A stretch of 64,000 bases of DNA from an uncultured virus (IMG/VR IMGVR_UViG_3300020180_000002) (taxonomy: Duplodnaviria; Heunggongvirae; Uroviricota; Caudoviricetes), in the IMG/VR virus record IMGVR_UViG_3300020180_000002. The stretch is one strand, 5' to 3'. Shown here in pieces: positions 17,649 through 58,385 of this stretch. Each line of letters opens with the position of its first letter. The first letter of the stretch is position 1. The notes under the pieces were generated by a model that had not been told where the DNA came from, made no database searches, and saw nothing but the letters and a program-made list of their open reading frames with translations. A program made the translations under genes and the position numbers.

Positions 17649-17724
17649 ATATAGGGTAAACCCTCGTACCTGTACTCGAAAATCGTTTATAGGTCATTCT
17701 CGTGCGTTTAAATAGGGATATAAA

Positions 17725-18006
17725 ATGGATAATTCAACTAAAGATCAACAAGACGCCATACAAAGAGCTATAGATGCTATTAAGGCACGTGCTAACGGCC
17801 AGGCTGACGCTTCCAACTCCCCAGAGGTTGTAGAACCAATGCAGCCTCCTGCTAACCCTATGCCATATAGCCCTAAATCTACTAATAATGACCAGAATGC
17901 TCTTAATGATGAGCAAACTATGCAAGTTAACCCAGGTGCCCTTCTTGATACATTAAAACGTAAAAAACAACAAGAGATGGTAGATAGTCTATTTAAGAAC
18001 CAATAA
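17725..18006 (+). CDS. Hypothetical protein
   Basis: ORF with upstream AGGGA. Confidence 0.55.
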   Translation: MDNSTKDQQDAIQRAIDAIKARANGQADASNSPEVVEPMQPPANPMPYSPKSTNNDQNALNDEQTMQVNPGALLDTLKRKKQQEMVDSLFKNQ

Positions 18007-31830: not shown

Positions 31831-32271
31831 TTAGAATTCCATTCTAAGATACAGGGAAGTTAACGGTTTGTCAATACTCAAGTCAACCTCTGCTCCAACA
31901 TACACAGGAAACACAGGGATTTTAACATCGGAACCAACTCTATAAAACGGCTTATCTGATAAAGATCTAGGGTTTATACCTACACCAGCTTTAACTGAAT
32001 ACATCTTTTGTGATTTAGTCTTTTCAGTTGATTTATCAGTTTTTGTTACATTAGTTTCTTTTTGCTTAGTTTCTTTAGTCTCTTCAATAAGCTTACCAGT
32101 ATCTTTATCATATTTCTTGGTGGTTTTCTCATCCTTTTGAACTATAGTCTTTTCAATTATCTTTTCTTGAATAACAACCTTATCAGGTGCAAAGGTATAA
32201 CCTAATACCCCCCCAATAGCGATTGCAACAATAGATATAGCTAACATTTTAAGTATATTATTTAAGTTCAT
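31831..32271 (-). CDS. Membrane-anchored hypothetical protein
   Basis: N-terminal TM helix, K/T/E-rich linker, C-terminal beta strands ending in F. Confidence 0.55.
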   Translation of the reverse strand: MNLNNILKMLAISIVAIAIGGVLGYTFAPDKVVIQEKIIEKTIVQKDEKTTKKYDKDTGKLIEETKETKQKETNVTKTDKSTEKTKSQKMYSVKAGVGINPRSLSDKPFYRVGSDVKIPVFPVYVGAEVDLSIDKPLTSLYLRMEF

Positions 32272-32663
32272 TATTTGTTATCCTTTTTATATCGATCATC
32301 CAAATGAGGTTTATTTTTAACCATCCAAATAGCCATGGCAATGCTTGCGGCCGCGTGGCCCAAGTGATTTAACTTTGAATCATCTGCAACGTCTTCGCCC
32401 CATGAATATGCATTCAAGTGGCGAAGGGCCGCACCTAATAGTCGAGTAACTTTAATCCCGTTAGTAAAGTTATATCTGCCATATTTTTGTTCGCCATTCA
32501 TAAAAGCTTTAGCTGCTTCATCTAAAAACTCAGGAGGCAAAAGTGAATGATCAGGCTTTCCATTATCATTCTTAATGCCTTCAACTTTAGTTGGTTTTAC
32601 TTCTTGTTTAATAAAACTATCAAATGTATTATCTAATTTATCTGACATATTATCTCCTCTCAT
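32271..32663 (-). CDS. DUF5664-like dATP/dGTP diphosphohydrolase domain protein
   Basis: K-x-D-x-G-K-P-x-x-S-L-L-P...G-x-x-K-Y-G-x-x-N-F...A-A-L-R-H...G-E-D...H-L-G-H-A pattern. Confidence 0.75.
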   Translation of the reverse strand: MRGDNMSDKLDNTFDSFIKQEVKPTKVEGIKNDNGKPDHSLLPPEFLDEAAKAFMNGEQKYGRYNFTNGIKVTRLLGAALRHLNAYSWGEDVADDSKLNHLGHAAASIAMAIWMVKNKPHLDDRYKKDNK

Positions 32664-32931: not shown

Positions 32932-33609
32932 TCAACCTATTAATTCCTTAAGCTTTTCTTTAGACCGTTTAAGGCTATAGTTAATAAATACCCCTTTCGG
33001 GATAACGGTATTGAACATTACAGAGGTTTTGAACAGTTTTTCTAATAAACGATCAACGTCATAGTCCCCTTTAAAATCTTCTACTAACGAGAGCTCGCCA
33101 TTTGACTTATAGAAGAAGTAGGCACGGTCCCCCTCTACATACTCCGTACCCGCTATCGCAGACTTCACTATGGCCTCATTAGTGCGTTTAGCGGCCATTA
33201 CAGAAGCGCTGATAGTCTTCCTAGATGCCCATCTCTTAATATCTTCAATTAAAACAATTTCTTTAACATACCTATGGTATACTTCTTCATATTTATATGT
33301 ACCATTAAGCATTTCATCTATAATGTCTTTAATAAACTGTTTTAACGCGGGTTCCTTTGTTGAACTCTTGACACTAGAGCCTTTATAAGTGATCTTTTCG
33401 CCGTCATAAAGTATATAGTTCTTGGTTTTAAAGATTATTACTCTTTTAAACGTGCCTTCTAGCTCCCAGTTGATTCCTGATTCAAATAATGAATTCAATT
33501 CATTAGTGAGGCTAACCTGTTCTTCTTCTGTAAATGCACTTTGGTCTGCTTTACAAACCATGATACTATCCGTGTCACAGTTCACTAATTTAAAGTTTTT
33601 ACTTGACAT
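32932..33609 (-). CDS. polB: Family B DNA polymerase, C-terminal subunit (motif C, thumb)
   Basis: NCDTDS motif C and K-N-Y...KG motif; own ATG at 33609 preceded by GGTGAAGA. Confidence 0.85.
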   Translation of the reverse strand: MSSKNFKLVNCDTDSIMVCKADQSAFTEEEQVSLTNELNSLFESGINWELEGTFKRVIIFKTKNYILYDGEKITYKGSSVKSSTKEPALKQFIKDIIDEMLNGTYKYEEVYHRYVKEIVLIEDIKRWASRKTISASVMAAKRTNEAIVKSAIAGTEYVEGDRAYFFYKSNGELSLVEDFKGDYDVDRLLEKLFKTSVMFNTVIPKGVFINYSLKRSKEKLKELIG

Positions 33610-35092
33610 AATCTTCACCAGTTGCCCATTTAATGGCCTTAGCTAATATCTCTCTACCTGTTCTTGTAATGAATGCAGCCCCTTCAGGGTAGTTATTATT
33701 GTTGTACTTACTAGCCATGTATCCATACATTGAGTTAATACCTTGTTTTAAGGTTAACTGTAATGCTTCATAGTATTCATCATTTTTAGCTAGTTTTTTA
33801 TATTCTAATCTCTTCTTAGTAAAATATCTACATAATTCTAACAAGTATCCTAGAGGGTCTTTAATCTTATCATACACTTCATATTGTAAAATAATACTTG
33901 GGTAAAGTGATGAGATATCCCATTTTATACAATTGGAATAAACGCCAGATGTAGAGTCAGATGTTGCACCTTCGAACACTATAGATTGCGTCACTTTAGA
34001 TATACTATGTCCGCCCTGTATGTAAGCTCGATTCATCATAGTATTGATTTGACCGCCGCTTGCAGATTCGATTACATGCTGATAGCTTCGGGCCACAGAC
34101 TGTGTCCAATAAAATGATGTTGCACACATTAAATTATATAAATTTAAACTATCATCAGCATCGAACATTGCGTATTCTTTAATCTTTTTCCATTCAACAG
34201 GGTCTTTATATTTTAATCTAATCTGCCCAGCATCATAGAACTGTCTATCTTTTACTTCTAAACCCTCTTGTTTAATAATATTCTTTAAACCATAGGTTTC
34301 ATACTTTCGACCAATATCGTACTTGTAAGATAGAAACAAAGTATCAATAACTTCTCTGCCGTATACGTGAACTTTTTTAAATTCATAGAAATTAGTAGAA
34401 TCTTTTCTAAACTTACTATCATAGGTGTCAAAGGTGATATCATCCCCGTTGCGGCCCAAAGTGAGATGTACGCCATATTTATTAGCAATGAAATTTAAAT
34501 AGGGTAAATCGAACATAACAATATTATGTCCCACTAGCAGAGAAGGGTCTTTTTCATTAACCCATTCGCACCATGCTTTTATCATTTCACCTTCATTATC
34601 ATACTCATCATAGGTAAACATCTTACGTTCTAGTTTATCTTGGCTTGAGTAAGTATTTGAAATAATAAGAACTTTAGACGAGGAGTCATGGATTAGTCCG
34701 GTGGTTTCAATATCAAATGATAACACACTAACATCAGTATGTTTTAGATCCTTGAAATACGTCAAACCCTCGCGCACCATAAGTGCCTCCTTGGAGTTCC
34801 ATATGGAGAAAATGTCTTCACCTTTATAACGGTGTCGGTCAGATGTAAATGATCTGCGAGTTTTAAATGTCTTAATCCATTTATAATGAAGATTACCCTT
34901 AAGAGCTTTAAAATGAGGGTCTAGACATTTATTAGCTAGTAACCAGTATTCATTAGGTAAAATCTGACTAGTAACAAACCCATCCTGTTGTTGAATAAAT
35001 ACCTCAGTACCATCATCGGTGGGTTCAATAGAGACAATTCGAGTTAAATTAGATTTTCCAAAGATGAGCTTATCCATTGAATATCTTTCCAT
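33599..35092 (-). CDS. polB: Family B DNA polymerase, N-terminal subunit (3'-5' exonuclease, motifs A and B)
   Basis: SFDIET, GHNIVMFDLPYL and YAMFD exonuclease motifs; DISSLYPSII motif A; K-x-x-x-NSMYG motif B. Confidence 0.9.
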   Translation of the reverse strand: MERYSMDKLIFGKSNLTRIVSIEPTDDGTEVFIQQQDGFVTSQILPNEYWLLANKCLDPHFKALKGNLHYKWIKTFKTRRSFTSDRHRYKGEDIFSIWNSKEALMVREGLTYFKDLKHTDVSVLSFDIETTGLIHDSSSKVLIISNTYSSQDKLERKMFTYDEYDNEGEMIKAWCEWVNEKDPSLLVGHNIVMFDLPYLNFIANKYGVHLTLGRNGDDITFDTYDSKFRKDSTNFYEFKKVHVYGREVIDTLFLSYKYDIGRKYETYGLKNIIKQEGLEVKDRQFYDAGQIRLKYKDPVEWKKIKEYAMFDADDSLNLYNLMCATSFYWTQSVARSYQHVIESASGGQINTMMNRAYIQGGHSISKVTQSIVFEGATSDSTSGVYSNCIKWDISSLYPSIILQYEVYDKIKDPLGYLLELCRYFTKKRLEYKKLAKNDEYYEALQLTLKQGINSMYGYMASKYNNNNYPEGAAFITRTGREILAKAIKWATGEDYVK

Positions 35093-38896: not shown

Positions 38897-39117
38897 TACT
38901 GTTGTCCTTTAATTTTTAGTTCAACATCCAATCTTTTATAAGCTTGATATACTTCATTAAGATCTTCTTCTTTTAAAGTTTTCTTAAGTGCTATTAGCAT
39001 GAATACTTGTTCATCCCTGGCCCCCATGATATATGCACCCTTAGTTGCAATTCTAAATCCTAGTAAAAATGATACTACACTTATAAAAACCACTAAAGCT
39101 GATAATATAATTGTCAT
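38896..39117 (-). CDS. Small membrane protein
   Basis: N-terminal TM helix. Confidence 0.55.
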   Translation of the reverse strand: MTIILSALVVFISVVSFLLGFRIATKGAYIMGARDEQVFMLIALKKTLKEEDLNEVYQAYKRLDVELKIKGQQ

Positions 39118-39608
39118 TTAGTTAACTCCTGTATTAGTTTCTTGATTTCACTTTTACGGCCCAATGCCTTGGCGCGTTCCATTACTTCTTCAATCACTTG
39201 ATCATAAATTTCCATAAGTTCAGTGGTTTGATTACCCAGAGACTGTTGTTCTTTAAGGTCAATCAATAGTTCAATACCGTCGCAAAGTTTACATAGCTTC
39301 TTTTCATCATCTGAAATAAATTGAATAGAATGCTCTGGCAGTAGCTCAAACTCTTTAATAGCAGGTATCTTAGCTTTAACTGGACTAGGACAATCAAAGC
39401 CTAAGAAAGCTTCGGACATGTCATGCATTAAAGCTGCAAACACTTCCTTGCCGCCTAGATACTGATACAACATAGCAACTCGTGCTGAATGCTCTAACAC
39501 ACTCTTAGGTTTAATCATGGTATAAGAAGTAAACCGGCTTACTCTGTGTAAACGATTGATTACTTGTTTTAGTTTAATAAATGTAAAATCCATTTGATTT
39601 TCTTTCAT
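39114..39608 (-). CDS. HD-domain nucleotidase (YfbR/DatZ-like)
   Basis: SVLEHS...ALMHDMSEA..GD-like...K..D motifs. Confidence 0.8.
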   Translation of the reverse strand: MKENQMDFTFIKLKQVINRLHRVSRFTSYTMIKPKSVLEHSARVAMLYQYLGGKEVFAALMHDMSEAFLGFDCPSPVKAKIPAIKEFELLPEHSIQFISDDEKKLCKLCDGIELLIDLKEQQSLGNQTTELMEIYDQVIEEVMERAKALGRKSEIKKLIQELTK

Positions 39609-39888: not shown

Positions 39889-41865
39889 TTATTCATATAC
39901 AACTTTACCTGCAAATTGTTTCTGATAAATTTCAACCCTTTGGGTTAAATGCTTAGTCATATATTTAGTATACTTGAAATTGAAATCATATACAATAGCT
40001 ACCTTTTTACCAGGTGATAGTCGTACTGCTCGTCCTATTGCTTGTGTCACCATGATTTCACTTTTGCCGCCTCTAGCCATAATGAGATGTGTGGTCGTCC
40101 TTAGGTCACACCCTTCGCCAAACACAGTTGATCCGATTAGTATACGAGTTTTGTTATCATTAAAATCTTCAATAGCTTCCCTGATCTCATCCTTAGTATT
40201 ATCACCTGTTACATAAGAACAGGTGATACCTGACTCAATTAAGTATTTATAAATAACATCACCTGAATGTTCTTTTTTGTCAATAAGAATAAGAATAGGC
40301 TCGTCTTTGGGTATTTTATTTTTAACTAAATCCTTAATAGATTCAAGTAGTTCTTTACATTTATAGTTAATTTTATATTCATTTTGATAATTACGATCAG
40401 GTTTACCCGATAGGGGTATAATCCTAAACTCCACAGGCGTTAGGTATCCTTCTTTAGTGGCCTGTATTGCATTGTAATCATATATCACTTCACCCGACAT
40501 ACCTTGAAGGTCCATAAGTTTAGAGTCATTGCGAGTATATGTAGCAGTCATGTTTAAACGAAAGTAAATAGGCTGTAGTGCATTTAAAAGATCAAGATAG
40601 GAGTCAGACGCACTATTTGATACTAAAAGACCATTGGCAAAATAATTATGATTATCTTTAACCTCGATATCATATACAGTCGGATATAATCGTCTAGTTG
40701 CCACGCCATTGCAATATAAATTTTTTATTCGTTTTATTGATTTTATTTTACTCATTTTTGATGTATTATCAAACAATTTATTACAAATAGGGCAACCCGC
40801 TTCAGTTTGAATTATAAAATCATCTTCTAATGTTAAATCTTTAGCCTCGGTATACCCTCGGTTAGAAGTAAATATTTTATGATTTTCAGTACATAAAATC
40901 GTTTTAGTATGATTATTATGTTCAAATTCTATTTGTATTAATTCAGTTTTAGGTGCATCATATTTAAAATAATTTATTACTTCTTTATATTCTAATGCGC
41001 CGCTAGGTGATTTACTTAAAACTTTACATTGTATTTTTTTATCTACAATTTGTTTTATAGATATTAAGCCTTTATCTGTAATTATTTTTTCTCCGCCGCT
41101 TAAACAATGATGAGCTTCGTCCATTATGAATAAATCTACGTTGTTTAATGGGGTCTTTATAAGCCCTTGCTTATTAAGGGAAGCTAGTGTTTGTATAGTG
41201 GCAACTCTAATAGGTTTAAGCTTCTTATCTTTCTTCATATCCAGTGTAGTTATCTTTTGAACATTCTTTTCGCCAAATGAAGATACAAAGATATCATATG
41301 CTTGAGTTAATAGTGCACTAGATGGAACCACAAATAAAGTGTTTACACCTAGCTGTTTAATAATTTCTACAGCTATTCTAGTTTTACCGGCACCGCAAGC
41401 TAGCTGTAATACCCCCCTACAATGCTTTATAAACACATCAACCGCCTCCTGTTGATAGTATCTTAATGCATGGGGTTTGTTATGCCATCTAAATATATTA
41501 TATGGCGCAGGTTTAATCCGTTCGTCTGATATGGTATATTGTGAACCTTGCAAAGATTCTTTAACTAAATGAATCAGCCCTGTGGGGAATTCATTATCTT
41601 TATTTAACCAGCACACTTGATCTGGACCTAAGGCTTTAAATTTACCTCTAAGCGCCATGAGGAGGGGTATATTTCGTTTAGCACCTGCTCTTTTAATTTG
41701 ACTATAAAGCATTTGCTTTTCAAGAATAACGTCTTCATTAGTATAAGTTAATGATTTTTTTACCTTTTCAATATCAATGGAGGTAAAACCGTTAAGCGTA
41801 CAAAATGAATTGTTAAGTTTAATTGTACTCATATATTCATTTACATTGGAATTAGATACATCCAT
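39889..41865 (-). CDS. SF2 DEAH helicase (UvsW/XPB-like) containing an intein
   Basis: LRYYQ Q-motif, ACGAGKT, DEAHH, MTAT, GEGCD and QAIGRAVR. Confidence 0.9.
   Translation of the reverse strand: MDVSNSNVNEYMSTIKLNNSFCTLNGFTSIDIEKVKKSLTYTNEDVILEKQMLYSQIKRAGAKRNIPLLMALRGKFKALGPDQVCWLNKDNEFPTGLIHLVKESLQGSQYTISDERIKPAPYNIFRWHNKPHALRYYQQEAVDVFIKHCRGVLQLACGAGKTRIAVEIIKQLGVNTLFVVPSSALLTQAYDIFVSSFGEKNVQKITTLDMKKDKKLKPIRVATIQTLASLNKQGLIKTPLNNVDLFIMDEAHHCLSGGEKIITDKGLISIKQIVDKKIQCKVLSKSPSGALEYKEVINYFKYDAPKTELIQIEFEHNNHTKTILCTENHKIFTSNRGYTEAKDLTLEDDFIIQTEAGCPICNKLFDNTSKMSKIKSIKRIKNLYCNGVATRRLYPTVYDIEVKDNHNYFANGLLVSNSASDSYLDLLNALQPIYFRLNMTATYTRNDSKLMDLQGMSGEVIYDYNAIQATKEGYLTPVEFRIIPLSGKPDRNYQNEYKINYKCKELLESIKDLVKNKIPKDEPILILIDKKEHSGDVIYKYLIESGITCSYVTGDNTKDEIREAIEDFNDNKTRILIGSTVFGEGCDLRTTTHLIMARGGKSEIMVTQAIGRAVRLSPGKKVAIVYDFNFKYTKYMTKHLTQRVEIYQKQFAGKVVYE
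40615..41106 (-). mobile_element. Mini-intein (164 aa) in the helicase
   Basis: Begins CLSGGEKI directly after DEAHH; block B CTENHKIF; block F/G VYDIEVKDNHNYFANGLLVSN followed by Ser; no endonuclease domain. Confidence 0.9.
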
Positions 41866-42098
41866 GCATGTGGATTTCTATGGTCAGCTGTTAATAGTTT
41901 AATTATTTCATATTTAAAATAAGTTGATGTTTTATATAAATAGCCAAATTGTTTACATAAATGTTTCATACACTATAGAGCCATAAATAATTCAACTCAT
42001 TAATTTTGCTAAATGGATATTCTCTTTCTAATACAACGGTTTTAAGTTTAAAAGAATATACACTTACAAAATAATAAAAATTAAGTTGTTTAACTAGA

Positions 42099-43262
42099 TT
42101 ATTCATTACTCGATTTAATTCTTACTAAACTACCGTAAGGTGGTTTAACTGAATCATTATTTATTACCCATAAACATTTATAAGTAACTTCTTTAGCATC
42201 AGGAAATTCAGCATATCCATCCGTCAAGTAAATTACCCCTTTAAATCGTTCTTCAATGGCTATATCATGGACCGCAATAAAACTTGTACCGCCTTGACAT
42301 AAACGTGAAGCTTCAAATCCTTTTACATATTTAGCACGTTGGTGTACATTAGTGTCAAATACTGCAATTTCAATATCAATATTTCCAGTTGAGTTAATAG
42401 CTTCAATTTCTGAATAGAAGGCCCTAAGGTCATCATCACTAACGCTGCCGCTGCTATCAATTCCGATTAGAATCTCAGTCTTAGGAATCTTTTTAATACC
42501 AGGTATTTTACTGCCAAATCGTCTACTAGGACGTTTCCATGTATTTAAAGTATTGACATCAATTAAACTTTGTGTAAATTGACGTAGCACTTGCTGCCAT
42601 GGTATTTGTTTACTAGCTTCATATTGAAACATAAAGTCTTTAACGTCTTTAGGTAGCTCTCCAGCTGAAAGTGTCTTAGCTTTTTTAGTCGCATTAGCCA
42701 CTGCTTCTTTCATTAGATCTTTATTATTAGTAGAATCTTTAAAATACTCATGATCTTGATGGCTGCTATTTTGTACTTTAGCTTTAGATTTTAATTGAGC
42801 ATAATAATTAATCCAGCTATCGCCAGTTGTAAAATCAAAGTGTTTAGGATAAACAGGCTGCATTTCAGCTTTTTTTACATCAGGCCCCATCAGTTTACTT
42901 TTTACAAGTTCTTCGATGTAAGGGTTAATCTCTAGATCCATAGCGATATTAGCCATTTGCATTTGAGTTTCAATACCCATTTTTGCACTAATAGAATCTA
43001 ATAAACCTTCTTTAGTTTGTTTAATATGATCTTTATAGATATGACCAAATTCATGAAGGATAATACCGGCCTGCTCTTCCATTGGTAACTTTGAAAATAG
43101 AGTGGGGTTGATGACCATCTCGATTCTGTTTTGCACTTTAACAGCCGCAATATAAGGCTGTTTATCATCTAATGTAATCTTACATAATTGTAAAAGAGAA
43201 TAAAAAAAACTGTAATTCTTTAAAAGATAAAGCTTAACTGGCCTTAAATCTAATTCATCCAT
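42099..43262 (-). CDS. Metallopeptidase-like plus vWA domain protein (DUF2201-type)
   Basis: HEFGH motif; MIDAS DSSGS, GGT and YLTDG motifs. Confidence 0.85.
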   Translation of the reverse strand: MDELDLRPVKLYLLKNYSFFYSLLQLCKITLDDKQPYIAAVKVQNRIEMVINPTLFSKLPMEEQAGIILHEFGHIYKDHIKQTKEGLLDSISAKMGIETQMQMANIAMDLEINPYIEELVKSKLMGPDVKKAEMQPVYPKHFDFTTGDSWINYYAQLKSKAKVQNSSHQDHEYFKDSTNNKDLMKEAVANATKKAKTLSAGELPKDVKDFMFQYEASKQIPWQQVLRQFTQSLIDVNTLNTWKRPSRRFGSKIPGIKKIPKTEILIGIDSSGSVSDDDLRAFYSEIEAINSTGNIDIEIAVFDTNVHQRAKYVKGFEASRLCQGGTSFIAVHDIAIEERFKGVIYLTDGYAEFPDAKEVTYKCLWVINNDSVKPPYGSLVRIKSSNE

Positions 43263-43456
43263 AAACTGCTCTCTTTCTCAATTAACAATATGATATAAGT
43301 GTCTTTAACCCCAGTGCGCTCGACCGAAAACTCTTCGGCCACGTGGAATACATTATTTTGGAGTTGATAAATCCGCCAAGAGACAAATCCGGTAGCTAGC
43401 GCCGCCAATCCTGCTGCGGCGCTGGAAATGACAGACATAAGTTCGTATGAAGTCAT
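43250..43456 (-). pseudogene. Truncated foreign membrane-protein gene fused to the repeat sequence
   Basis: First 52 codons are in the GC-richer block (TM helix, ATGA overlap with hsdS). The last 16 residues come from the 36-bp repeat and the adjoining phage sequence. Confidence 0.6.
43265..43300. repeat. 36-bp direct repeat, copy 1 (ACTGCTCTCTTTCTCAATTAACAATATGATATAAGT)
   Basis: Identical to 46129-46164; flanking bases differ on both sides. Confidence 0.95.
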
Positions 43457-44622
43457 GCTTTAACCCTCACTTTTCCAGTGAGTAGCTGCTGCATTAGACC
43501 TTGCTTCTGTTTCCACAAATTTGCACGGATCTCACCATAGCGCGCACCAGCGAGAGTTATAGAATTGAGCAGATTTGTAATATTGTCTTGAACAGAACGA
43601 GTCGGAACATCCAGAGTGATTGACTCCAGCTCAGACTTGTTGAGCTTTGCTCGCGTCCCGCCATTCAAAACCGGAGTAATATCCCTATGCACCAGGCTAT
43701 AAAACAAGAAATCCTGACTCACTAAATTACTGCGTGCGCGGAGAACGTGTGCATGATTGTTTACCCAAGACTTTCCACGAATTTGGTAAGCGATGGGTCT
43801 TGTTCGATATTCAGAAAAATTACCCCCGTCCTCAGCTAGGAGGACTAATGGCTCATCAAAAATGAACTCATTAATACTATCTACCTGGCCATTTGCTCCA
43901 TAGTACGGATAGGAGCCCTGCATTACGGCACGCTGTTCTTGGTTTAGGGGCTTTCGTTTATTGTCTAAAATGTCACATGATTCTGAAATGCTAAGTTTTC
44001 GGGCCGAAGGAATGTTTTTAGAATAAATGAGCCTTCGTAGAAGTTCCGATTTTAATCTGAAGATTGATCGTAAAACTGAGTCCACCTCCTCAATCCCCCG
44101 ATCCCAGCAGGAGAGGATTTCGGCGATTTTCTTTTGTTCGGGGAGAGGAGGGAGCGAAATCGCAAACAATCTCTGCGCCGTAATCGGAACCTGGTTTCGC
44201 GTCGATTGACCCATTACTTTTTCATACTGTTTTCTAAATATGTAGGAAGACATCGATTGCATTAAAAAGTCTTCGGACAACTTTTTAGCGTCCGTGCGAA
44301 ACAGAGTAAGAGTAGTACTAAGAATTGCTTCGGGTATACCGATGAGTTTCGCAACAGGACCAACCGTTGCATTATGTGCAAAGAGGACATCTCCCGCTCT
44401 TGCTTTGCCTTTTCGAAGCGAATCGGCCTTCTCTCTGGTAAGGTACTTTGCTTTAGCGAGGTCAACTACACCGCCAATAATACAATTTGCCGAAAGGTAG
44501 GGTATGCCAGCAGAAACGAACTCATCTGAAGTTGGATATAGTTCCCCATGATTTCCATCAATATGATCTACGATCGATCCATCATCTAAAAGAGATTGAA
44601 TTGAACGGGTTGGCCAACTCAC
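43453..44622 (-). CDS. hsdS: Type I restriction-modification specificity subunit
   Basis: Two TRDs separated by LPPLPEQKKIAEIL; C-terminal KQGLMQQLLTGKVRV; GTGA overlap with hsdM. Confidence 0.93.
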   Translation of the reverse strand: MSWPTRSIQSLLDDGSIVDHIDGNHGELYPTSDEFVSAGIPYLSANCIIGGVVDLAKAKYLTREKADSLRKGKARAGDVLFAHNATVGPVAKLIGIPEAILSTTLTLFRTDAKKLSEDFLMQSMSSYIFRKQYEKVMGQSTRNQVPITAQRLFAISLPPLPEQKKIAEILSCWDRGIEEVDSVLRSIFRLKSELLRRLIYSKNIPSARKLSISESCDILDNKRKPLNQEQRAVMQGSYPYYGANGQVDSINEFIFDEPLVLLAEDGGNFSEYRTRPIAYQIRGKSWVNNHAHVLRARSNLVSQDFLFYSLVHRDITPVLNGGTRAKLNKSELESITLDVPTRSVQDNITNLLNSITLAGARYGEIRANLWKQKQGLMQQLLTGKVRVKA

Positions 44623-46127
44623 AACCCCAACTCCTTAAGATACCGATTCATCTCCTTACGAGTTTCAGCAAGCTGTCCTTCGATCTGCTCGATCTCCTTC
44701 TGCACAGCCTTAATGTCGATCTGCTCTTCTTCTTCGGCAGTATCTACGTAGCGCGGGATGTTGAGATTGAACTCGTTCTCACGAATCTGATCGAGACTCG
44801 CGACAAAGGAATACTTTTCTTCAGTCTTTCGCTCTTTGAACACTCGCAACACATGCTGAATGTCTTCAGGGCGAAGCTTGTTTTGATTTTTGCCTTCTTG
44901 GTACTCCCGGCTGGCATCAATAAAAAGCACGTCGTCGGTCTTCTTGCCTTTATTCAAGATCAAAATAGCCGCAGGAATTCCTGTTCCGTAAAAGAGATTG
45001 CTCGGTAGACCAATCACAGCGTCCAGATAGTTTTCTTCAATGAGTCGTTGCCGAATTGTCCCTTCGCTAGAGCCTCGAAACAAAACTCCATGAGGTACAA
45101 CGACGCCGACCTTTCCGTTCTTTGCGCTCGCCGTTTCGATCATGTGCGAAATGAATGCAAAGTCGCCTTTGCTCTTAGGCGGAATACCGCGATGAAAGCG
45201 GCTAAACGGATCGCCTGCAGCATGTTCTGCGCCCCACTTATCAAGCGAGAATGGTGGATTTGCGACGACGATCTCAAAGTTCATAAGCTTGTCTTTTTCG
45301 ATAAGCTTTGGATTATTGAGAGTATCGCCCCACTCGATGCGGGCGTTGTCCATGCCGTGCAGAAACATATTCATGCGAGAAAGCGCCCAGGTGGCGCCGT
45401 TGTTCTCTTGGCCGTAGAGCGAAAAATCATCGCTCCCGATCTCTTGAGCTACGCGAATCAGAAGCGAACCCGACCCACAAGCAGGGTCGCAGATGCGGTT
45501 ACCCTTTTTCGCCTGAAGGAGTTTAGCGAGTAAGATCGCTACTTCGGTAGGCGTATAAAATTCCCCGCCTTTTTTACCGGCGTCGGGCGCGAATCGAGAA
45601 ATAAGATACTCGTACGCGTTACCGATGATGTCTTGTTTGCCGACCTTCGAAGGTCTGAGATCCAGAACAGGATTAGCAAAATCACCAATCAGAAGCTCAA
45701 GCCTGCGGTTACGTTCTTTTGTCTGGCCTAGGTTAGACTCGCTATTGAAGTCGATGTTTCTAAACACACCTTCGAGTTTGGCTTTGTTAGCCTCTTCGAT
45801 TTGCTCAAGAATATTGTTAATGAACTCGCCAATTTTTACGGATTTTCGGTGCTCGTAGATGTCATCAAACGTGCATCCATCTGGAACGATAAAGCGCTCT
45901 CGGGCCAACATGCGTTTGGCGCGCGTTTCGTCGCCTTTGTGTTCTTTCAGGTAAGCGTCTTTTTTATCCTTCCAGACATCACTTAGGTATTTGATGAACA
46001 AGAAAACCAAAATGTAGTTTTTGTACTCGGATGGATCGACCGTACCGCGAAAAGTGTCGCAGGCTTTCCAGAGGATTTTATTGATTTCTTCTTGGTTAAT
46101 TTGAACGACAGGTTCTTTAGTGGTCAT
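44619..46127 (-). CDS. hsdM: Type I restriction-modification N6-adenine methyltransferase subunit
   Basis: LWKACDTFRG, GEFYTP, DPACGSGSLL (motif I), ANPPF (motif IV), PHGVLFRG and NLNIPRYV; ATG at 46127, one base after the repeat. Confidence 0.96.
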   Translation of the reverse strand: MTTKEPVVQINQEEINKILWKACDTFRGTVDPSEYKNYILVFLFIKYLSDVWKDKKDAYLKEHKGDETRAKRMLARERFIVPDGCTFDDIYEHRKSVKIGEFINNILEQIEEANKAKLEGVFRNIDFNSESNLGQTKERNRRLELLIGDFANPVLDLRPSKVGKQDIIGNAYEYLISRFAPDAGKKGGEFYTPTEVAILLAKLLQAKKGNRICDPACGSGSLLIRVAQEIGSDDFSLYGQENNGATWALSRMNMFLHGMDNARIEWGDTLNNPKLIEKDKLMNFEIVVANPPFSLDKWGAEHAAGDPFSRFHRGIPPKSKGDFAFISHMIETASAKNGKVGVVVPHGVLFRGSSEGTIRQRLIEENYLDAVIGLPSNLFYGTGIPAAILILNKGKKTDDVLFIDASREYQEGKNQNKLRPEDIQHVLRVFKERKTEEKYSFVASLDQIRENEFNLNIPRYVDTAEEEEQIDIKAVQKEIEQIEGQLAETRKEMNRYLKELGL

Positions 46128-46128
46128 G

Positions 46129-46164
46129 ACTGCTCTCTTTCTCAATTAACAATATGATATAAGT
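46129..46164. repeat. 36-bp direct repeat, copy 2 (contains GAGAAAGAGAG RBS on the - strand)
   Basis: Identical to 43265-43300. Confidence 0.95.
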
Positions 46165-46221
46165 TATAATGTTTGCCTAATTGTAAAGTTAACTGGTTCA
46201 TTTATATATTATCTCTTTATT

Positions 46222-46250
46222 AGAGTATAACAGTTACTTCTCACTGTCAA
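46222..46250 (-). promoter_or_regulatory. Sigma70-type promoter TTGACA-17-TACTCT (or TTGACA-15-TATACT) upstream of hsdM and vWA
   Basis: Perfect -35 hexamer in the intergenic gap after the AAA gene. Confidence 0.55.
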
Positions 46251-46283
46251 GCCACCCAACTTGAGGCATGTGTCGCCTATAAA

Positions 46284-47630
46284 TTAAGCTTGCTCTTTCT
46301 TTTTGTTCTTATTAACTTCTTTAGTAGCTGCCATAAACTTATCATAAAGGCCTTTATGTCCTTTTACTTTGATAAGATCATCTCGATACATAAAAAAGAT
46401 AATTGAATTAAAAGAGTTAAATCGTTTAATTTGATTTTTATGATGTTCTTCAGTTGTTAAACTGCCGTCATTTGCTAAGAATGGGGGCGTAGTAATTAAT
46501 GCATGGCTGATTTGAAACAACGCAGGTGTTTCCATGTTATTTAAAAACGCAACTAAATTAGTAAGTTTATCTGCAATACCGCAGAAGCCCGACTTTACAA
46601 ACCCATTTAGTTCTTCAATACATTCTTTAACAAGTTTTTTATCAACATCTCTATCAAATTCAAGAATACTTACATTATAATCAAAACTATATGCAACTTG
46701 TTCATGTAGTTGTCTAACACCTGATATGATATTCTCATGTGTTCCTGCAATTAAATCATTTTGTAATAGCTTTTCCATTTTGTTATACTTTTTAATAGCA
46801 TCTTTTGAATTTGTTACAATCTCATCAAAGGTGATAGGCTTTTCAATGGTTTCTAGGTATCCTAAAAATGCACCGGCAGCTTCAATACCTACAGAACAAG
46901 TGATGATATCTCTAACTAAATCAATATCAGATACATTACCTTCTTCTTCGATTACATTAAGAATATTAGATACGGCATTAGTAAGAAGTCTAGGACAAGG
47001 TTCCATCTTGATAAGGGTATCAAGTTTCTTTTCTGCACCAGTAATTTCAGGTCTATGTTTAAGAAATCCTAGTAATGTCTTATTGAATTTAGAATTACCT
47101 TCTGCCCAGTTAATAAATTCTTTATTCTCTGGTTCAAATGGCACCACGATAAAACGTTTAACTAGTGCCGATGTCATTGTATTGGCGGTGGTATATTCTG
47201 CGCTGGCGGGGTTAATAGCGCCACAGATATAGCTATCTGGGTGAAGACGATGAGTATGAATACGACCTTCAAGTACAAGCTGTAGCATACCTGATTCAAC
47301 ATCAACACGTGCATTGTTAAGTTCATCAAGAAAGATAACACAAGGCTCATGAGGCATCCATTCAGGTCTAGCCCATGATGTAACTTTACTTACCTTTTTA
47401 TTACCTTCTTCATCTAACAATGTAAGTGTATTTACTTCAGGGATGCCAATAAAATCGCCCATTTCTTGTTGAGCGGCAAAGATAGAAACAAATTTATGAT
47501 TAGGAAATACTTCCTTAGCAATCTGTTCAGTAATTTGAGTTTTACCAATTCCTGAGTGTCCAACTAGCAAAAACGGCTGCTTTGCTTTCATTGCTAATCG
47601 CATGATTCTTTGTGATTGTTTAATATTCAT
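46284..47630 (-). CDS. MoxR-like / dynein-related AAA+ ATPase
   Basis: GHSGIGKT, IFLDELNN, AINP, ALVKRF and PCPR motifs; usual partner of vWA/DUF2201 proteins. Confidence 0.85.
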   Translation of the reverse strand: MNIKQSQRIMRLAMKAKQPFLLVGHSGIGKTQITEQIAKEVFPNHKFVSIFAAQQEMGDFIGIPEVNTLTLLDEEGNKKVSKVTSWARPEWMPHEPCVIFLDELNNARVDVESGMLQLVLEGRIHTHRLHPDSYICGAINPASAEYTTANTMTSALVKRFIVVPFEPENKEFINWAEGNSKFNKTLLGFLKHRPEITGAEKKLDTLIKMEPCPRLLTNAVSNILNVIEEEGNVSDIDLVRDIITCSVGIEAAGAFLGYLETIEKPITFDEIVTNSKDAIKKYNKMEKLLQNDLIAGTHENIISGVRQLHEQVAYSFDYNVSILEFDRDVDKKLVKECIEELNGFVKSGFCGIADKLTNLVAFLNNMETPALFQISHALITTPPFLANDGSLTTEEHHKNQIKRFNSFNSIIFFMYRDDLIKVKGHKGLYDKFMAATKEVNKNKKKEQA

Positions 47631-48580: not shown

Positions 48581-48884
48581 TTATATTCCTTCATTTACAT
48601 TGTATCTATAAATCCAGTATGTATAATCCGCCCATTGCCATGTATTCTTATATTGTTTCCATATACCAATGATGTTTTGATTAAAGTAAATTAATTGAAC
48701 TCCATATCTTAAGTGAATTTGTAATAAAAGTTTGTTCATTGCTCTTCATCTTTAATCATTGTATCCCAGTCTGGTTCCCATTGAGCCGCTTCTTCGATAG
48801 CTTTAGTTAGCTCTTCATCAGTTGGCTCTCTGCGTAGTTCTTCACATAACGCTTCAAATATTTCTTCTTCAATATTAAAGTAAT

Positions 48885-51083: not shown

Positions 51084-51134
51084 CAAGGTCAAAATGCCCT
51101 ATAAACGACGTAAGGATAGGGGGTGATGTCTTAC

Positions 51135-51272
51135 TATCAACTATAGAGTGAAAATCGTTTATAGGGCAATTGTGTGCGTTTAAATAGGTAATTAGAGGGG
51201 GTGTTATATCAACTATAGAGTGAAAATCGTTTATAAGGGGTAATTGTGTGCGTTTAAATAGGTAATTAGAGG
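51135..51272. repeat. Two tandem copies of a ~65-bp dispersed motif (TATCAACTATAGAGTGAAAATCGTTTATAGGG...GTGTGCGTTTAAATAGGTAATTAGAG)
   Basis: Copies at 51135 and 51207; further copies at 54658-54722, inverted at ~55136-55190, and partial at 17678-17717. Confidence 0.9.
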
Positions 51273-53712: not shown

Positions 53713-55600
53713 AAACACAATAGGGGGTGATAGATTATAATAAACACAATAGAGAGAGAGAGAGTGTGTGTATGCGCCATATAAGACCTGTTTTATCATA
53801 TATACACACACACACACACACTTATACGGTGTATAATAAACACAATTATATCAAATATGACATTAAGTGTAATAGGTATGTATGTATCTTATACGGTGTA
53901 TAATAAACACAATTATATCAAATATGGTGGTGGTATTAAGTAATAGGTACAGTAGATACCACTATAATAGCTAACACACACACACTATAATATAATAACC
54001 ATAACAACTATAATATAATAACCATAATAGCTAACACACACCCACATACCCACCACTATAATAGCTAACACACACCCACATGCCCACCACTATAATAGCT
54101 AACACACACATATACACCCACTATAGCTAGTGTAGATACAACTAAGTGGGTGGGTGGGTATGTGTGTACAATATACCAATACTAGCTTACAATTAACAGC
54201 TTACAATTAACAGCTAACAATTAACAATTAACAGCTAACAATTAACCGTGTATACATACTGCACACCAGCAACCCGCACACACTCACTGTGCAAACTATT
54301 GCACACCAGCAACCCGCTAACAAGTATACAGCGCATACATACTCTTTCTCTCTATTACACCTATACATACCCTCTATTACCATAGGTATATATACACACT
54401 CTCTCTATTACCATAGGTATATATACACACTCTCTCTATTACACTCTCTCTATTACACACACACTCTATTATTACCATAGGTGTGTATACACACACATAT
54501 ATACACTCTATTATACCTATACACCCCCTCCCCCTATTGTTTGGTATTAGGGTATATGCACACACACACACTCTCTATTACACCTATACACACACATACT
54601 CTCTCTCTCCCCCTATTGTTTGGTGGCGGGTATGCTGTATACAGCTAACATACACACTATCAACTATAGAGTGAAAATCGTTTATAGGGGGCAATTGTGT
54701 GCGTTTAAATAGGTAATTAGAGAGAGGGTGTATGTATATGTATGTTAGCTGTATGCGCATACACACACACACACACACACTTCTCTTGCACGTACGTAAA
54801 CATTAAACGGTTAACAGATGGCTCTAATTGGGTTTGGTTGGTATTGCGTACACACACACCCCTATGTAATAGCTAACACATACATATACCTACCTATGTT
54901 AGCTATATACACATCAGCTCTGTGTAGAGAGAGAGAGAGAGAGTGTATACCGTATACTTGAACACACACTGTATACCACCACCCCCAGTTGGGGACGGAG
55001 GGGTATGCTAATGGTTAATGGGTGTCCAGTATACAGCAGCGCGAGATTAAAGATTTTAGTATAAATAGGTTATAGCGGGCTGTAATGGCTAACAGCTAGC
55101 AATAAGGTGGTGGTGGTTGGTATCTAGTTTTATAATGCCTGTTAAACGAACACAATCACCCTATAAACGATTTTCACTCTATAGTTGATAGGTAGAGAGG
55201 AGAGAGGTGTATACACCGTTGTATATTACAGTGGTGGCGGTGATTAAACATATGGTTTACAGTTTACTATACACTGTAAACAATGTTATAATGTGTGTCA
55301 AGTTATAGTTATGTTATGGTTATTATATTATAGTTATGGTTATAATGTCAAGTTATGGTTGTATTAATAAATCCATAGTATGTAAATGAGTTTTATCACA
55401 TAGAAAGTACATAGGAAATGGGTTATAGTGTGTGTAGTGTAGTGTAGTTTTATAGTTTGTTATAATTATGTTAAGATTGTGTTAATAAACACCATAGGTA
55501 GGGGGGGTTTTATCACATAGAAAGTACATAGGAAATGGGTTATAATGAAAACAGTGTGTAACGAACGAGGTTGACGTGAGGTTGATTTTAAAATGAAAAG
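53713..55600. repeat. Low-complexity, microsatellite- and tandem-repeat-rich non-coding region
   Basis: (CA)n, (GA)n and (GGT)n tracts; duplicated 39-bp (53821, 53888) and 38-bp (55390, 55507) units; ACAATTAACAGCT-type array at ~54190-54245. Confidence 0.9.
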
Positions 55601-56144
55601 TAGGTATGGATACGATTTATCAATTTACGTTCAACCAGATGGCGTATAGCTCGTTTAAACGCTATTTCTAACATATAAACCTAATCTAAGCTGTACCATT
55701 TCCATTTTATGTTATGGTAGGTGTAAACAGCCACTCGATAGATGGCCATAAACGATGGATGGGTATTGTAACTTATGTGTCCAGTTTCCAGAACCTGGTA
55801 ATTATACCCCATATGTTTTAATAAGCTAAACACCGCTGCCACCACCACCACTTTGAGTATTAACTCCTAGTTTATATTCCATGCTATAGAACCAACGCCA
55901 ATATGGTCTAGATATATAACCAATTGCTATATCATCTCTCACTTTGTAAACATAATCTACACCTAGCTGTCGAAATAGCTTAGTCATTTAGCATCCATAC
56001 CATATTAAAAGGGTCACCGTTATAATGAATACATACAAATATAATTGATCCAAACTTGTTATTAACCATATAAGATGTATAGTGATAATTGAATTGGTTC
56101 ACCAATACATTCATATATTATTTATTAAACCCACCACCCCCCTA

Positions 56145-56174
56145 TTGACTTTAAACGGTGTTGTGTGGTATAAT
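56145..56174 (+). promoter_or_regulatory. Sigma70-type promoter TTGACT-18-TATAAT with TG extension
   Basis: Perfect -10 with TGn extension, 6 nt before the ATG at 56181. Confidence 0.65.
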
Positions 56175-56180
56175 AACTTT

Positions 56181-56363
56181 ATGAAACTAATTAAAGTGAC
56201 AATCATATCTGGAGCTAATATTTATGTTAATCCATTGGAAGTGGCTTATTTAAGAAGTGACCCTATGGACCCAACCGTTACATGGATTTATGCAGGGGAT
56301 ATGGTTCATAAAATTAAACTTTCATTAGAAGAAACAGTTAAACTTTTAGAAAAAAGTAAATAG
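56181..56363 (+). CDS. FlbD/SwrD-like small protein
   Basis: I-x-V-T-x-x-x-G-x-x-I-Y-V-N-P-x-x-V...T-x-I...S-L-E-E pattern; true start likely the ATG at 56181. Confidence 0.5.
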   Translation: MKLIKVTIISGANIYVNPLEVAYLRSDPMDPTVTWIYAGDMVHKIKLSLEETVKLLEKSK

Positions 56364-56373
56364 AATATTGTTC

Positions 56374-56445
56374 ACCGAGGTGGCGAAGAGGAAACGCAGC
56401 ACGCTGTTAACGTGCCTATCGTAGGTTCGAATCCTACCCTCGGTG
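56374..56445 (+). tRNA. tRNA-Asn (GTT)
   Basis: Acceptor stem ACCGAGG/CCTCGGT, anticodon arm GCACG-CTGTTAA-CGTGC, T arm GTAGG-TTCGAAT-CCTAC; CCA not encoded. Confidence 0.92.
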
Positions 56446-56477
56446 GAGAGTATATATTTTAAAAAGGAGATAATAAC

Positions 56478-56681
56478 ATGATAGAATTCAATTTAGTATT
56501 AGATGGTGATTTAAAGGGACAAGTATCTATTGTTAATCCTCAGCATATTGAAACCATTGTTGATGGTATGCCTTTACATAAGAAACCTGTTACTCAGATT
56601 TGTACAGTATCTGGTGCTCGGTTTTTTGTTGATCATCCTTATCTAGAAGTTAAAAAAATGTTAAATGAATATACTTTGTAA
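56478..56681 (+). CDS. FlbD/SwrD-like small protein
   Basis: V-N-P-x-H-I-E-T-I...T-x-I-x-x-x-S-G-x-x-F-x-V...E-V pattern; RBS AAGGAG. Confidence 0.55.
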   Translation: MIEFNLVLDGDLKGQVSIVNPQHIETIVDGMPLHKKPVTQICTVSGARFFVDHPYLEVKKMLNEYTL

Positions 56682-56809
56682 AGAAATAGGTTGTCATTAA
56701 ACTGTACCAAGTATCTTCGTACACACCTATGACCCCCTTTAATATATAAATATAGGGTGTGTGTGTATATGCAACAGCTTATGATAGATTCATATGGGTG
56801 GATTAATTT

Positions 56810-57013
56810 ATGAAAAATAACATACCTAATGGGTTCACTGAACTACTTAATTCATTTGATCCTACTAATTTAAATAAATTACCTGCAGCTGAATTAATTA
56901 AAGTATTCAGTCTACTTAAAGATTCTCAACAAGTATTGAGTGAACTATCTCAATATAGTAATTTAAACGCACACATTTCCCCTATAATCAATAGATACAA
57001 AGAATGGAAGTAA
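56810..57013 (+). CDS. Hypothetical protein
   Basis: ORF. Confidence 0.5.
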   Translation: MKNNIPNGFTELLNSFDPTNLNKLPAAELIKVFSLLKDSQQVLSELSQYSNLNAHISPIINRYKEWK

Positions 57014-57207
57014 TAATGCAAACAATACTATTAGCTTTAACTGGCAGCCTTCTAGGAGGTTTAACATTATCTTTAACTGTATACTTGCTATACCGTCATG
57101 AACAAGCTAAGTATAAACAAAAGATAGCTGATGCTTTAAAGCAGACTAAAGATATGTATTATGAAAAGTTAACAGATAGAGCTAATTCATTAGGTAAAAT
57201 GAATTGA
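57004..57207 (+). CDS. Small membrane protein
   Basis: N-terminal TM helix. Confidence 0.55.
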   Translation: MEVIMQTILLALTGSLLGGLTLSLTVYLLYRHEQAKYKQKIADALKQTKDMYYEKLTDRANSLGKMN

Positions 57208-57322
57208 CATTACTCACTGATAACTTTCAGTATCAATATTTAATATATGAAGATTATAGAAGAATAGTATTATATAAACTTCTTATTATGCCTAATACTT
57301 GGACTTATAATGTATAATTTAC

Positions 57323-57351
57323 TTGACAGCTAAGCAAATAAAGTATATTCT
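57323..57351 (+). promoter_or_regulatory. Sigma70-type promoter TTGACA-17-TATTCT
   Basis: Near-consensus; no ORF between it and the terminator. Confidence 0.65.
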
Positions 57352-57357
57352 ATAGAA

Positions 57358-57452
57358 GAACGAACGTATCTTACCTTTCACTCAGTACTCACTAACTCCT
57401 TTCTTAGTTAGTGAGTGGACCCCGTTAGTTTTTACAGCTAACGGGGTTTTTT
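57358..57452 (+). ncRNA. Putative ~95-nt small RNA
   Basis: Bounded by a promoter and an intrinsic terminator; 11-bp hairpin ACTCACTAACT/AGTTAGTGAGT with a CCTTTCTT loop. Confidence 0.6.
57419..57452 (+). terminator. Rho-independent terminator
   Basis: ACCCCGTTAG/CTAACGGGGT stem followed by a T tract. Confidence 0.85.
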
Positions 57453-57509
57453 ATTATTAAGTATCATATGGATTTACCTTTTAAATTACTTATAGTTGAA
57501 CATCTTAAA

Positions 57510-57672
57510 TAATACTAATTATTATAGTTAACAGTTAACAGTATACAGAATACTAATACTAATTATTATAGTTAACTGTTAGCTAGTATACAGTATACAG
57601 TATACAGAATACTAATACTAATTATTATAGTTAACTGTTAGCTAGTATACAGTATACAGTATACAGAATACT
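57510..57672. repeat. 59-bp tandem repeat (two exact copies plus one degenerate) with internal AGTATAC heptamers
   Basis: Units start at 57551 and 57610; degenerate copy from ~57510. Confidence 0.85.
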
Positions 57673-58061
57673 AGCTAACAGAACACAGCGAGACCTCATG
57701 GTCAAATCCCATTTGAGCAAATTATTACTGGTTAAACCGCTGATAGATACCTTGTATACTACTTGTAGCTAAGTCTTAACAACTAGGAAGCTAGGAAGTT
57801 CTATATTTGACCTTTGAGCTAGGCATTGAGAACCAAGACTCCGGACCTACTATGTCCTATATCTAAATATCTATTTTATGATCTAATAAGCTGTTCACTG
57901 ACTAAGCGTGTCTCGTAAATGTTCAACCAATTTCAAATACTCAGTCAACTCTACACTTTGGCTATCATCGCCGTTTTCTTTTACGTCTAAACTCCAATTG
58001 CGATATAAAAGACGTTTATTTCTAATACGATAAAACATATATGTTTAGCCGTATTACTAAT

Positions 58062-58090
58062 ATGTTACAATAGAACCTATTAATTGTCAA
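58062..58090 (-). promoter_or_regulatory. Sigma70-type promoter TTGACA-17-TAACAT facing an ORF-less structured region
   Basis: Perfect -35 hexamer, 17-bp spacer. Confidence 0.5.
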
Positions 58091-58385
58091 CTAGTATTTA
58101 TAATATATTGATTTAATTAGCCTTTAATAACATTATAATAACATTATAATATATTGATTTAATTAGCCTTTAATAACATTATAATAATTATAAATAAATA
58201 GTAAGAATTATAATAAGTATTATATAAAGAGTATTAGTTTAGGTTAGCACCTTCAACTTAAAACACATATTTGAGTGATCATCCTACTAAGAACCTTTAT
58301 ATTAAAATAAGCTTATTCCACACACTACCATGGAGCAGCTTGCCCCTTTAGTTAACTTAATTGAAACCACCAAGGAGATAATTCA

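Follow-up and report, generated by a model that had tools for sequence, protein, structure and literature searches.

The stretch analysed here, referred to throughout as the window, comprises 64,000 nt of one strand of an uncultured tailed phage (IMG/VR record IMGVR_UViG_3300020180_000002), whose parent contig measures at least 76.6 kb and continues for about 12.6 kb beyond the window. The locus of interest is a block of 2828 bp encoding the methylase (HsdM) and specificity (HsdS) subunits of a type I restriction-modification (R-M) system, positioned exactly between two identical 36-bp direct repeats (hereafter the 36-mer). All genes of this cassette and its neighbours are on the minus strand. 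An earlier reading of the window (the original prediction) had described a GC-rich block with intact hsdM and hsdS inside an exact 36-bp direct repeat, and both its coordinates and its description hold. The GC fraction of the block was 0.462 compared with 0.337 in the remaining window; 1-kb intervals wholly within the block ranged from 0.441 to 0.492, whilst those outside it reached 0.415 at most (mean 0.337, standard deviation 0.027). GC at third codon positions (GC3) was 0.53 in hsdM, 0.40 in hsdS and 0.22 in both flanking phage genes. The two copies of the 36-mer are exact and not extendable (A at 43264 versus G at 46128; G at 43301 versus T at 46165), and they constitute a unique pair in the window at up to 3 mismatches, with matches in 0 of 100 shuffles.

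The only open reading frames (ORFs) of the block with family matches were hsdM and hsdS, antisense ORFs having none. The hsdM translation displayed the S-adenosylmethionine motifs, namely motif I (DPACGSGS) and NPPF, and could be aligned over its full length to HsdM chains of solved structure (EcoR124, E 5e-72; EcoKI, E 6e-23), being nearer to EcoR124 than to EcoKI. HsdS comprises a pair of target-recognition domains and a pair of conserved regions. Its gene begins with GTG in a 4-nt overlap with the hsdM stop, and its Shine-Dalgarno sequence is located within hsdM. Both conserved regions aligned with the HsdS of L004, a Bdellovibrionota metagenome-assembled genome (MAG) with a complete type I operon, whereas the recognition domains differed. 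PADLOC returned generic type I methylase and specificity-subunit models only. By domain make-up, the window would thus encode a type I methyltransferase of two HsdM and one HsdS subunits (M2S1). A complete type I R-M system was not found, with HSDR_N/T1R domains in none of the 58 ORFs covered by the Pfam scan of window proteins. The original claim that the window holds no hsdR stands for these 58 ORFs, but a relic of 20 codons survives.

This relic forms part of a short chimeric ORF that follows hsdS and runs through the downstream copy of the 36-mer to a stop at 43250. An exhaustive phmmer search matched residues 1–37 of the ORF, at 62 % identity, to the N-terminus of P0124 (173 aa), and residues 30–171 of P0124 match a 199-aa gene, designated X, located between hsdS and hsdR in L004. 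The small ORF and the L004 gene did not align directly, so the link runs via P0124. In relatives, the product of gene X is a small membrane-anchored protein encoded between hsdS and hsdR, and X overlaps hsdS by 4 nt both in the phage and in L004. Residues 33–52 of the chimeric ORF matched L004 HsdR at about residue 130, within the HSDR_N domain. For 50 of 80 genome loci, a 23-residue query spanning the relic (ORF residues 31–53) found a match downstream of hsdM and on the same strand. Of the 37 matches with E<1e-3, 33 were in open frames 500 aa or longer and four in frames truncated by the ends of the loci; the matches fell about 127–206 residues into the open frame. The residues that follow in relatives are Thr-Tyr-Arg-Pro-Asp, containing the PD nuclease motif, and the phage junction is placed just before them. 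In L004, the operon runs from hsdM through two additional genes to hsdS, X and the gene for a 1064-aa HsdR, and it shows the same 4-nt overlaps. As the 68-codon ORF joins the start of X to an in-frame piece of HsdR, we therefore take the donor to have been a full hsdM-hsdS-X-hsdR operon. The relic and donor-style layout, along with the composition and the empty allele described below, bear out the proposal that a type I R-M operon, minus its hsdR, was the foreign source of the block.

Comparison with related sequences revealed both an empty and a filled allele of the locus. The empty allele, a single 36-mer as had been predicted, was carried by L002 (IMG/VR 3300007799_000078; 15.4 kb), a phage contig of 99.3 % identity in which flanks 99.2–99.6 % identical to the window are joined by one 36-mer from 46129 onward to 43300 downward. 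It was found independently in X11, a freshwater run and one of three sequencing runs (X1, X2 and X11) whose contigs or unitigs were compared with the window. There, a contig of 6179 nt at depth 8 contained a joint from 43264 to 46129 that skips 2864 bases, with 36 letters fitting both sides, and X11 had zero cover over hsdS and the hsdR relic. The length absent from empty alleles equals the block plus one 36-mer. The filled junction was present in three assemblies: the window, G001 (IMG/VR 3300020596_000100), which is colinear with the window across 10.6 kb with 21 differences, and L087, a contig assembled from a microbial-mat metagenome (ENA) at about 2x coverage. The last covers the left junction with 4 mismatches, running from 80 nt of upstream phage DNA through the 36-mer into the first 900 nt of hsdM.

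These data bear directly on whether the block is truly in the phage genome or is an assembly chimera or a collapsed or expanded repeat. Such an artefact could arise at the 36-mer, which is a separate node in the k=31 graph; the graph cannot order paths through a 36-bp repeat, so the ordering rests on the three assemblies, of which L087 is thinly covered and has a 3' part that looks chimeric. However, the junction recurred in all three, the chimeric ORF reads across it, and the empty-allele run lacked any cover over hsdS and the relic. In X1, possibly the source sample, unitig depth at the cassette was 56, compared with 55.7 and 50.9 at the left and right flanks and 97.5 at the 36-mer; the depths in X2 were 12.3 and 17.1 for the flanks, 13.4 for the cassette and 20.8 for the 36-mer. 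The coverage discontinuity that would have undermined the original prediction was thus absent from both runs, and because cassette depth matched flank depth in each, the block is not a chimera; we regard an artefact as extremely improbable.

Table 1. Features of the cassette locus and its neighbours (window positions)
Feature	Position	Strand	Basis or remarks
AAA_5 (MoxR-like) ATPase, upstream neighbour	46284..47630	-	PF07728 E 1e-8; phrog_1297
Native phage intergenic DNA, 119 nt	46165..46283	-	Nearly identical in L002 and L087
36-mer copy 1, 5' untranslated region and purine-rich ribosome-binding site of hsdM	46129..46164	-	ATG 1 nt beyond
Inserted block	43301..46128	-	Empty-allele comparison (L002, X11)
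hsdM, 502 aa, intact	44619..46127	-	PF12161 (HsdM_N) E 7e-32; PF02384 (N6_Mtase) E 7e-107
hsdS, 389 aa, full length	43453..44622	-	PF01420 in two stretches
Chimeric ORF after hsdS, 68 codons	43250..43456	-	4-nt overlap with hsdS
Putative donor gene X, first 32 codons	43361..43456	-	62 % identity to N-terminus of P0124
hsdR relic, 20 in-frame codons of N-terminal nuclease domain	43301..43360	-	74 % identity to L004 HsdR
36-mer copy 2, retained 5' untranslated region and ribosome-binding site of VWA gene	43265..43300	-	ATG 2 nt beyond
DUF2201 VWA-like protein/putative metallopeptidase, downstream neighbour	42099..43262	-	PF09967, PF13203; phrog_1314

The block appears to be an insertion into a conserved pair of phage genes encoding an AAA ATPase and a VWA-like protein. 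The VWA protein was 100 % identical in L002 and G001; its relatives among deposited phages were confined to Schitoviridae and one Moorella phage, at 22–27 % identity. In two distant Schitoviridae (N4-like) phages, AAA and metallopeptidase/VWA genes adjoin, with gaps of 12 and 6 nt. The purine-rich stretch of the 36-mer resembles those preceding many other genes of the phage, and the 36-mer is the native 5' untranslated region (5'UTR) and ribosome-binding site of the VWA gene in duplicate, one copy probably now serving hsdM and the other still serving VWA. It did not belong to any of the repeat families of the window, nor did it resemble a repeated regulatory cassette of the promoter early stem-loop (PeSL) type, occurring twice in 64 kb. 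A sigma-70 scan returned 22 sites against a shuffle mean of 23.6; as there was no excess over shuffles, we make no claim of a promoter.

Direct repetition of a target sequence around an insert is also what a transposon, integron cassette or homing element might leave, with the 36 bp as its target-site duplication. However, the block has neither terminal inverted repeats nor an ORF for a transposase, integrase or homing endonuclease, which leaves it outside the definition of a transposon or insertion sequence. One of its boundaries stands 1 nt ahead of a start codon, the other falls within a gene that is truncated, and 36 bp is far above the usual size of such duplications. A mobile element thus has very little to recommend it as the origin of the block.

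The junctions themselves point to a different route. The 36-mer opens with ACTTAT, which coincides with the conserved Thr-Tyr codons of HsdR at exactly this position, and its last 7 nt in copy 1 are GAGCAGT (minus strand). At the hsdM end, a 176-nt contig of X2 (depth 3.4) equalled window positions 46098–46135 exactly and was unlike the window over the following 138 nt, whilst a 376-nt contig of X11 (depth 3.3) matched 45874–46135 with 5 mismatches and was followed by 114 unlike letters. Both contigs depart from the window at 46135, 7 nt into the 36-mer, and therefore indicate a second, non-phage context of the hsdM start that shares GAGCAGT plus C-ATG with the phage.

We propose that two (or three) microhomology-guided template switches, illegitimate events resembling microhomology-mediated break-induced replication (MMBIR), inserted the block. 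One join would have formed at GAGCAGT, the 3' end of the 36-mer, and the other at up to 6 nt of ACTTAT, its 5' end. Exit from and re-entry to the phage template 36 nt apart would have duplicated the 5'UTR and ribosome-binding site of the VWA gene; because of this spacing, hsdM would be translated from a phage ribosome-binding site whilst VWA keeps its own. A further deletion or switch would have fused codon 32 of X to about codon 130 of hsdR, and the phage junction would then have severed hsdR 20 codons on, ahead of the PD nuclease motif. Selection against polar insertions would favour such a fusion of hsdM to the ribosome-binding site with the VWA site preserved. On balance, we consider the locus to be best explained, with fairly good confidence, by microhomology-mediated capture of hsdM, hsdS, X and the 5' part of hsdR, the product now acting as an anti-restriction methylase.

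The original prediction went further and suggested a reversible, swappable slot, in which the phage RecA-like recombinase excises, re-inserts or amplifies the cassette via the 36-bp repeats and both states are kept as a bet-hedge. The length of the repeat exceeds the usual minimum for RecA-type recombination, the phage has genes for RecA-like, SbcCD-like and exonuclease proteins, and both alleles exist in nature. The distribution of the alleles argues otherwise. Across 6169 flank columns, L002 differed from the two filled genomes at 46 and 40 sites and had 39 private sites, whereas the filled genomes differed from each other at 8; the empty genome is thus an outgroup. The flanks in X1 were no deeper than the cassette, and contigs of X1 and X2 contained no joint skipping the block, though contigs drop rare variants. 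Exact scans for the 36-mer recovered two viral records and one metagenome contig only, with no third kind of cargo; of the prediction for related phages, the empty site was found and different cargo was not. Together with the reading of the 36-mer as a duplicated 5'UTR rather than a recombination module, these results speak against the slot, which we consider improbable, although rare recombination between the repeats is to be expected. The pattern fits a single insertion on the branch leading to the filled clade. Relative to the phage lineage, the capture can be called recent, as had been suggested, given the exact repeats, the undrifted GC3 and the few differences among filled genomes compared with those to the empty one.

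A second presence/absence polymorphism tracks the cassette. A mini-intein (PF14890) of about 486 bp, at 40617–41103 in a ResIII/Helicase_C helicase gene (39889–41865, minus strand), was present in the window and G001 and cleanly absent from the 99 %-identical contig L002, and its absence there also counts against the slot.

Variation within the filled genomes was concentrated in hsdM. Of the 21 differences between the window and G001, 12 fell in hsdM (1509 bp), none in hsdS and 9 in the other 9.1 kb compared; X2 carried the same 12 hsdM differences as G001, and G001 and X2 were otherwise 99.8 % identical to the window. Nine of the 12 were at third codon positions, including six within 22 nt (45498–45519, codons 203–210), a cluster resembling a short tract of gene conversion by a related hsdM. 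The hsdM of L087 switches at about 45345, in a conserved motif, to a 3' half with a GC fraction of 0.60 (L087 positions 1017–1675) that is about 65 % identical to distant HsdMs; with coverage of about 2x, this may be either a genuine mosaic or a chimera of the assembly. The excess of hsdM differences, the conversion-like patch and the L087 switch suggest a role for the phage hsdM as a homology handle that exchanges with cellular hsd loci, through which specificity could be updated from hosts, but we hold this to be rather unlikely. Elsewhere, three adjacent substitutions relative to G001 (CCA versus TTG) were observed at 48659–48661, in a small ORF at 48581–48739.

With regard to the phage itself, Pfam matches in the window included a large terminase, a P22-like portal, a split DNA polymerase B, a DnaB-like helicase, and RecA-like and SbcCD-like proteins. 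It is a tailed phage of virulent type whose replication module is N4-like. A megablast search of window positions 42000–47500 against 50,697 phage records gave no match. The DNA polymerase B is encoded by two adjoining, slightly overlapping ORFs of 497 and 228 aa (32932–35092, minus strand). On the same strand, a MazZ-like dATP/dGTP diphosphohydrolase domain (PF18909, E 2e-25) was identified at 32271–32663 and an HD YfbR-like deoxynucleotidase at 39114–39608. Genes of this sort go together with nucleotide-pool editing or base replacement in other phages; no PurZ-like gene was found among the window ORFs scanned. A family of intergenic repeats of about 40–65 nt, 87–100 % alike and in both orientations (51129–51271, 54657–54722, 55142–55196, 17678–17725 and 56945–56992), may represent phage promoters or other regulatory units. 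Positions 53740–58190 are poor in ORFs and contain tandem and interspersed short repeats, CA/CT-rich tracts, exact duplications of 39–59 nt and a tRNA-Asn gene (56373–56446); this stretch may be an origin or genome-end region.

The cassette is co-oriented with the replication genes, and we found a methylase in a phage genome with no cognate nuclease in the window and with the insert at phage depth, as in other phage orphan methyltransferases. The remaining M2S1 enzyme would be co-transcribed with the replication genes and place a bipartite N6-methyladenine mark on replicating phage DNA, and progeny would resist the cognate type I enzyme even after growth on hosts without that system. Published work agrees with this: M2S1 is described as an active methylase (PMC12707154), lytic phages are reported to gain orphan methylases as protection against restriction (PMC4190342), and methylases are more frequent than any other known gene in the variable islands of environmental phages that are nearly identical (PMC7468147). 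Protection of progeny from the cognate restriction enzyme would, by analogy, be the best-supported function.

Alternatively, M2S1 might act mainly via host HsdR, either by sequestering it or by forming an enzyme of new specificity that attacks host or competitor DNA. Relatives of this HsdM family sit beside HsdR, and subunit exchange within type I families is presented as established in PMC12707154. We found no evidence of a compatible host HsdR, however; such a complex would also endanger unmethylated phage DNA, and nothing in the sequence tells this possibility from simple protection. We judge it a poor candidate, slightly poorer than the reversible slot.

Several observations weigh against capture followed by a protective role, and some of them concern the donor, which the original prediction had proposed to identify by near identity to a bacterial locus. 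Neither such a locus nor a cognate host system was found. The nearest HsdS among 5.8 billion proteins was 57 % identical, and 131 Bdellovibrionota genomes contained no close HsdS (7 matched at E<=1e-15, the best at 45 % and partial). The nearest HsdM was 86–88 % identical in protein and 76 % in DNA, the best genome match being a Bdellovibrionota MAG (HsdM 88 % protein, 76 % DNA) with different recognition domains. The microhomology of up to 6 nt at the hsdR–phage (right) junction is deduced from relatives rather than the true donor, and the second hsdM-start context comes from two low-depth contigs only (3.3–3.4). That the block was gained by the phage is what we infer, and three genomes cannot formally separate gain from precise loss. 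An hsdR gene may yet sit in the portion of the phage contig outside the window. Type I families vary in the efficiency of de novo methylation, and the methylase could be of less consequence if, in view of the MazZ-like and HD genes, phage DNA is otherwise modified.

As for where a donor may be found, X11 held hsdM-like pieces 91–98 % identical to the phage gene at a depth of about 3, though its phage has the empty allele; the habitat therefore harbours a gene resembling that of the donor. Viral contigs contained no exact match to 30 nt of the hsdM start, a result to be read with the G001 difference at 46124 and the possible exclusion of the window's own record. The identities above suggest that the true donor lies outside sampled sequences.

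Phage orphan methylases are a known kind; what stands out here is an unusually complete record of capture. The route by which a virulent phage obtains such a gene is rarely visible, and at this locus it can be read from before and after alleles, a nuclease stub, a donor-style operon, microhomologies and a duplicated ribosome-binding site that keeps both genes expressed. The locus would thus offer a concrete, testable case from nature in which illegitimate recombination gave a phage an anti-defence gene, and the filled and empty phages a matched pair with which to quantify the benefit that a phage draws from a type I methylase. A literature search at the level of titles and passages did not recover a description of the same arrangement. 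Among 50,697 phage records, 42 contained HsdM-like genes, none of which reached 60 % identity, and PHROG families phrog_2713 and phrog_2668 cover both subunits. Two of the 42 were inspected: a partial Staphylococcus record with hsdMS beside spl protease genes, and a P1-like phage with large genes downstream.

In T4-type phages, foreign genes (morons) lie between conserved genes and are flanked by repeated regulatory sequence (PeSL), a likeness to the arrangement seen here, although the 36-mer is a unique pair and not a genome-wide promoter cassette. The cassette resembles the EcoR124I-type M2S1 core in domain make-up, hsdM-hsdS overlap and conserved HsdS spacer regions, but differs in having no functional HsdR, recognition domains at most 57 % identical to sampled proteins, and a phage 5'UTR that would drive its expression. 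The closest parallels in kind are orphan methylases that lytic phages took from R-M systems of hosts or prophages, as in the lactococcal 936-type phages and phi50/pTR2030, where a nuclease-free methylase in a virulent-type phage is likewise read as acquired protection (PMC4190342). Those are single-gene type II methylases, whereas the phage described here carries a two-gene type I M+S cassette; in its case a stub of hsdR is still visible, the ribosome-binding site is duplicated and an allele without the insert is known.

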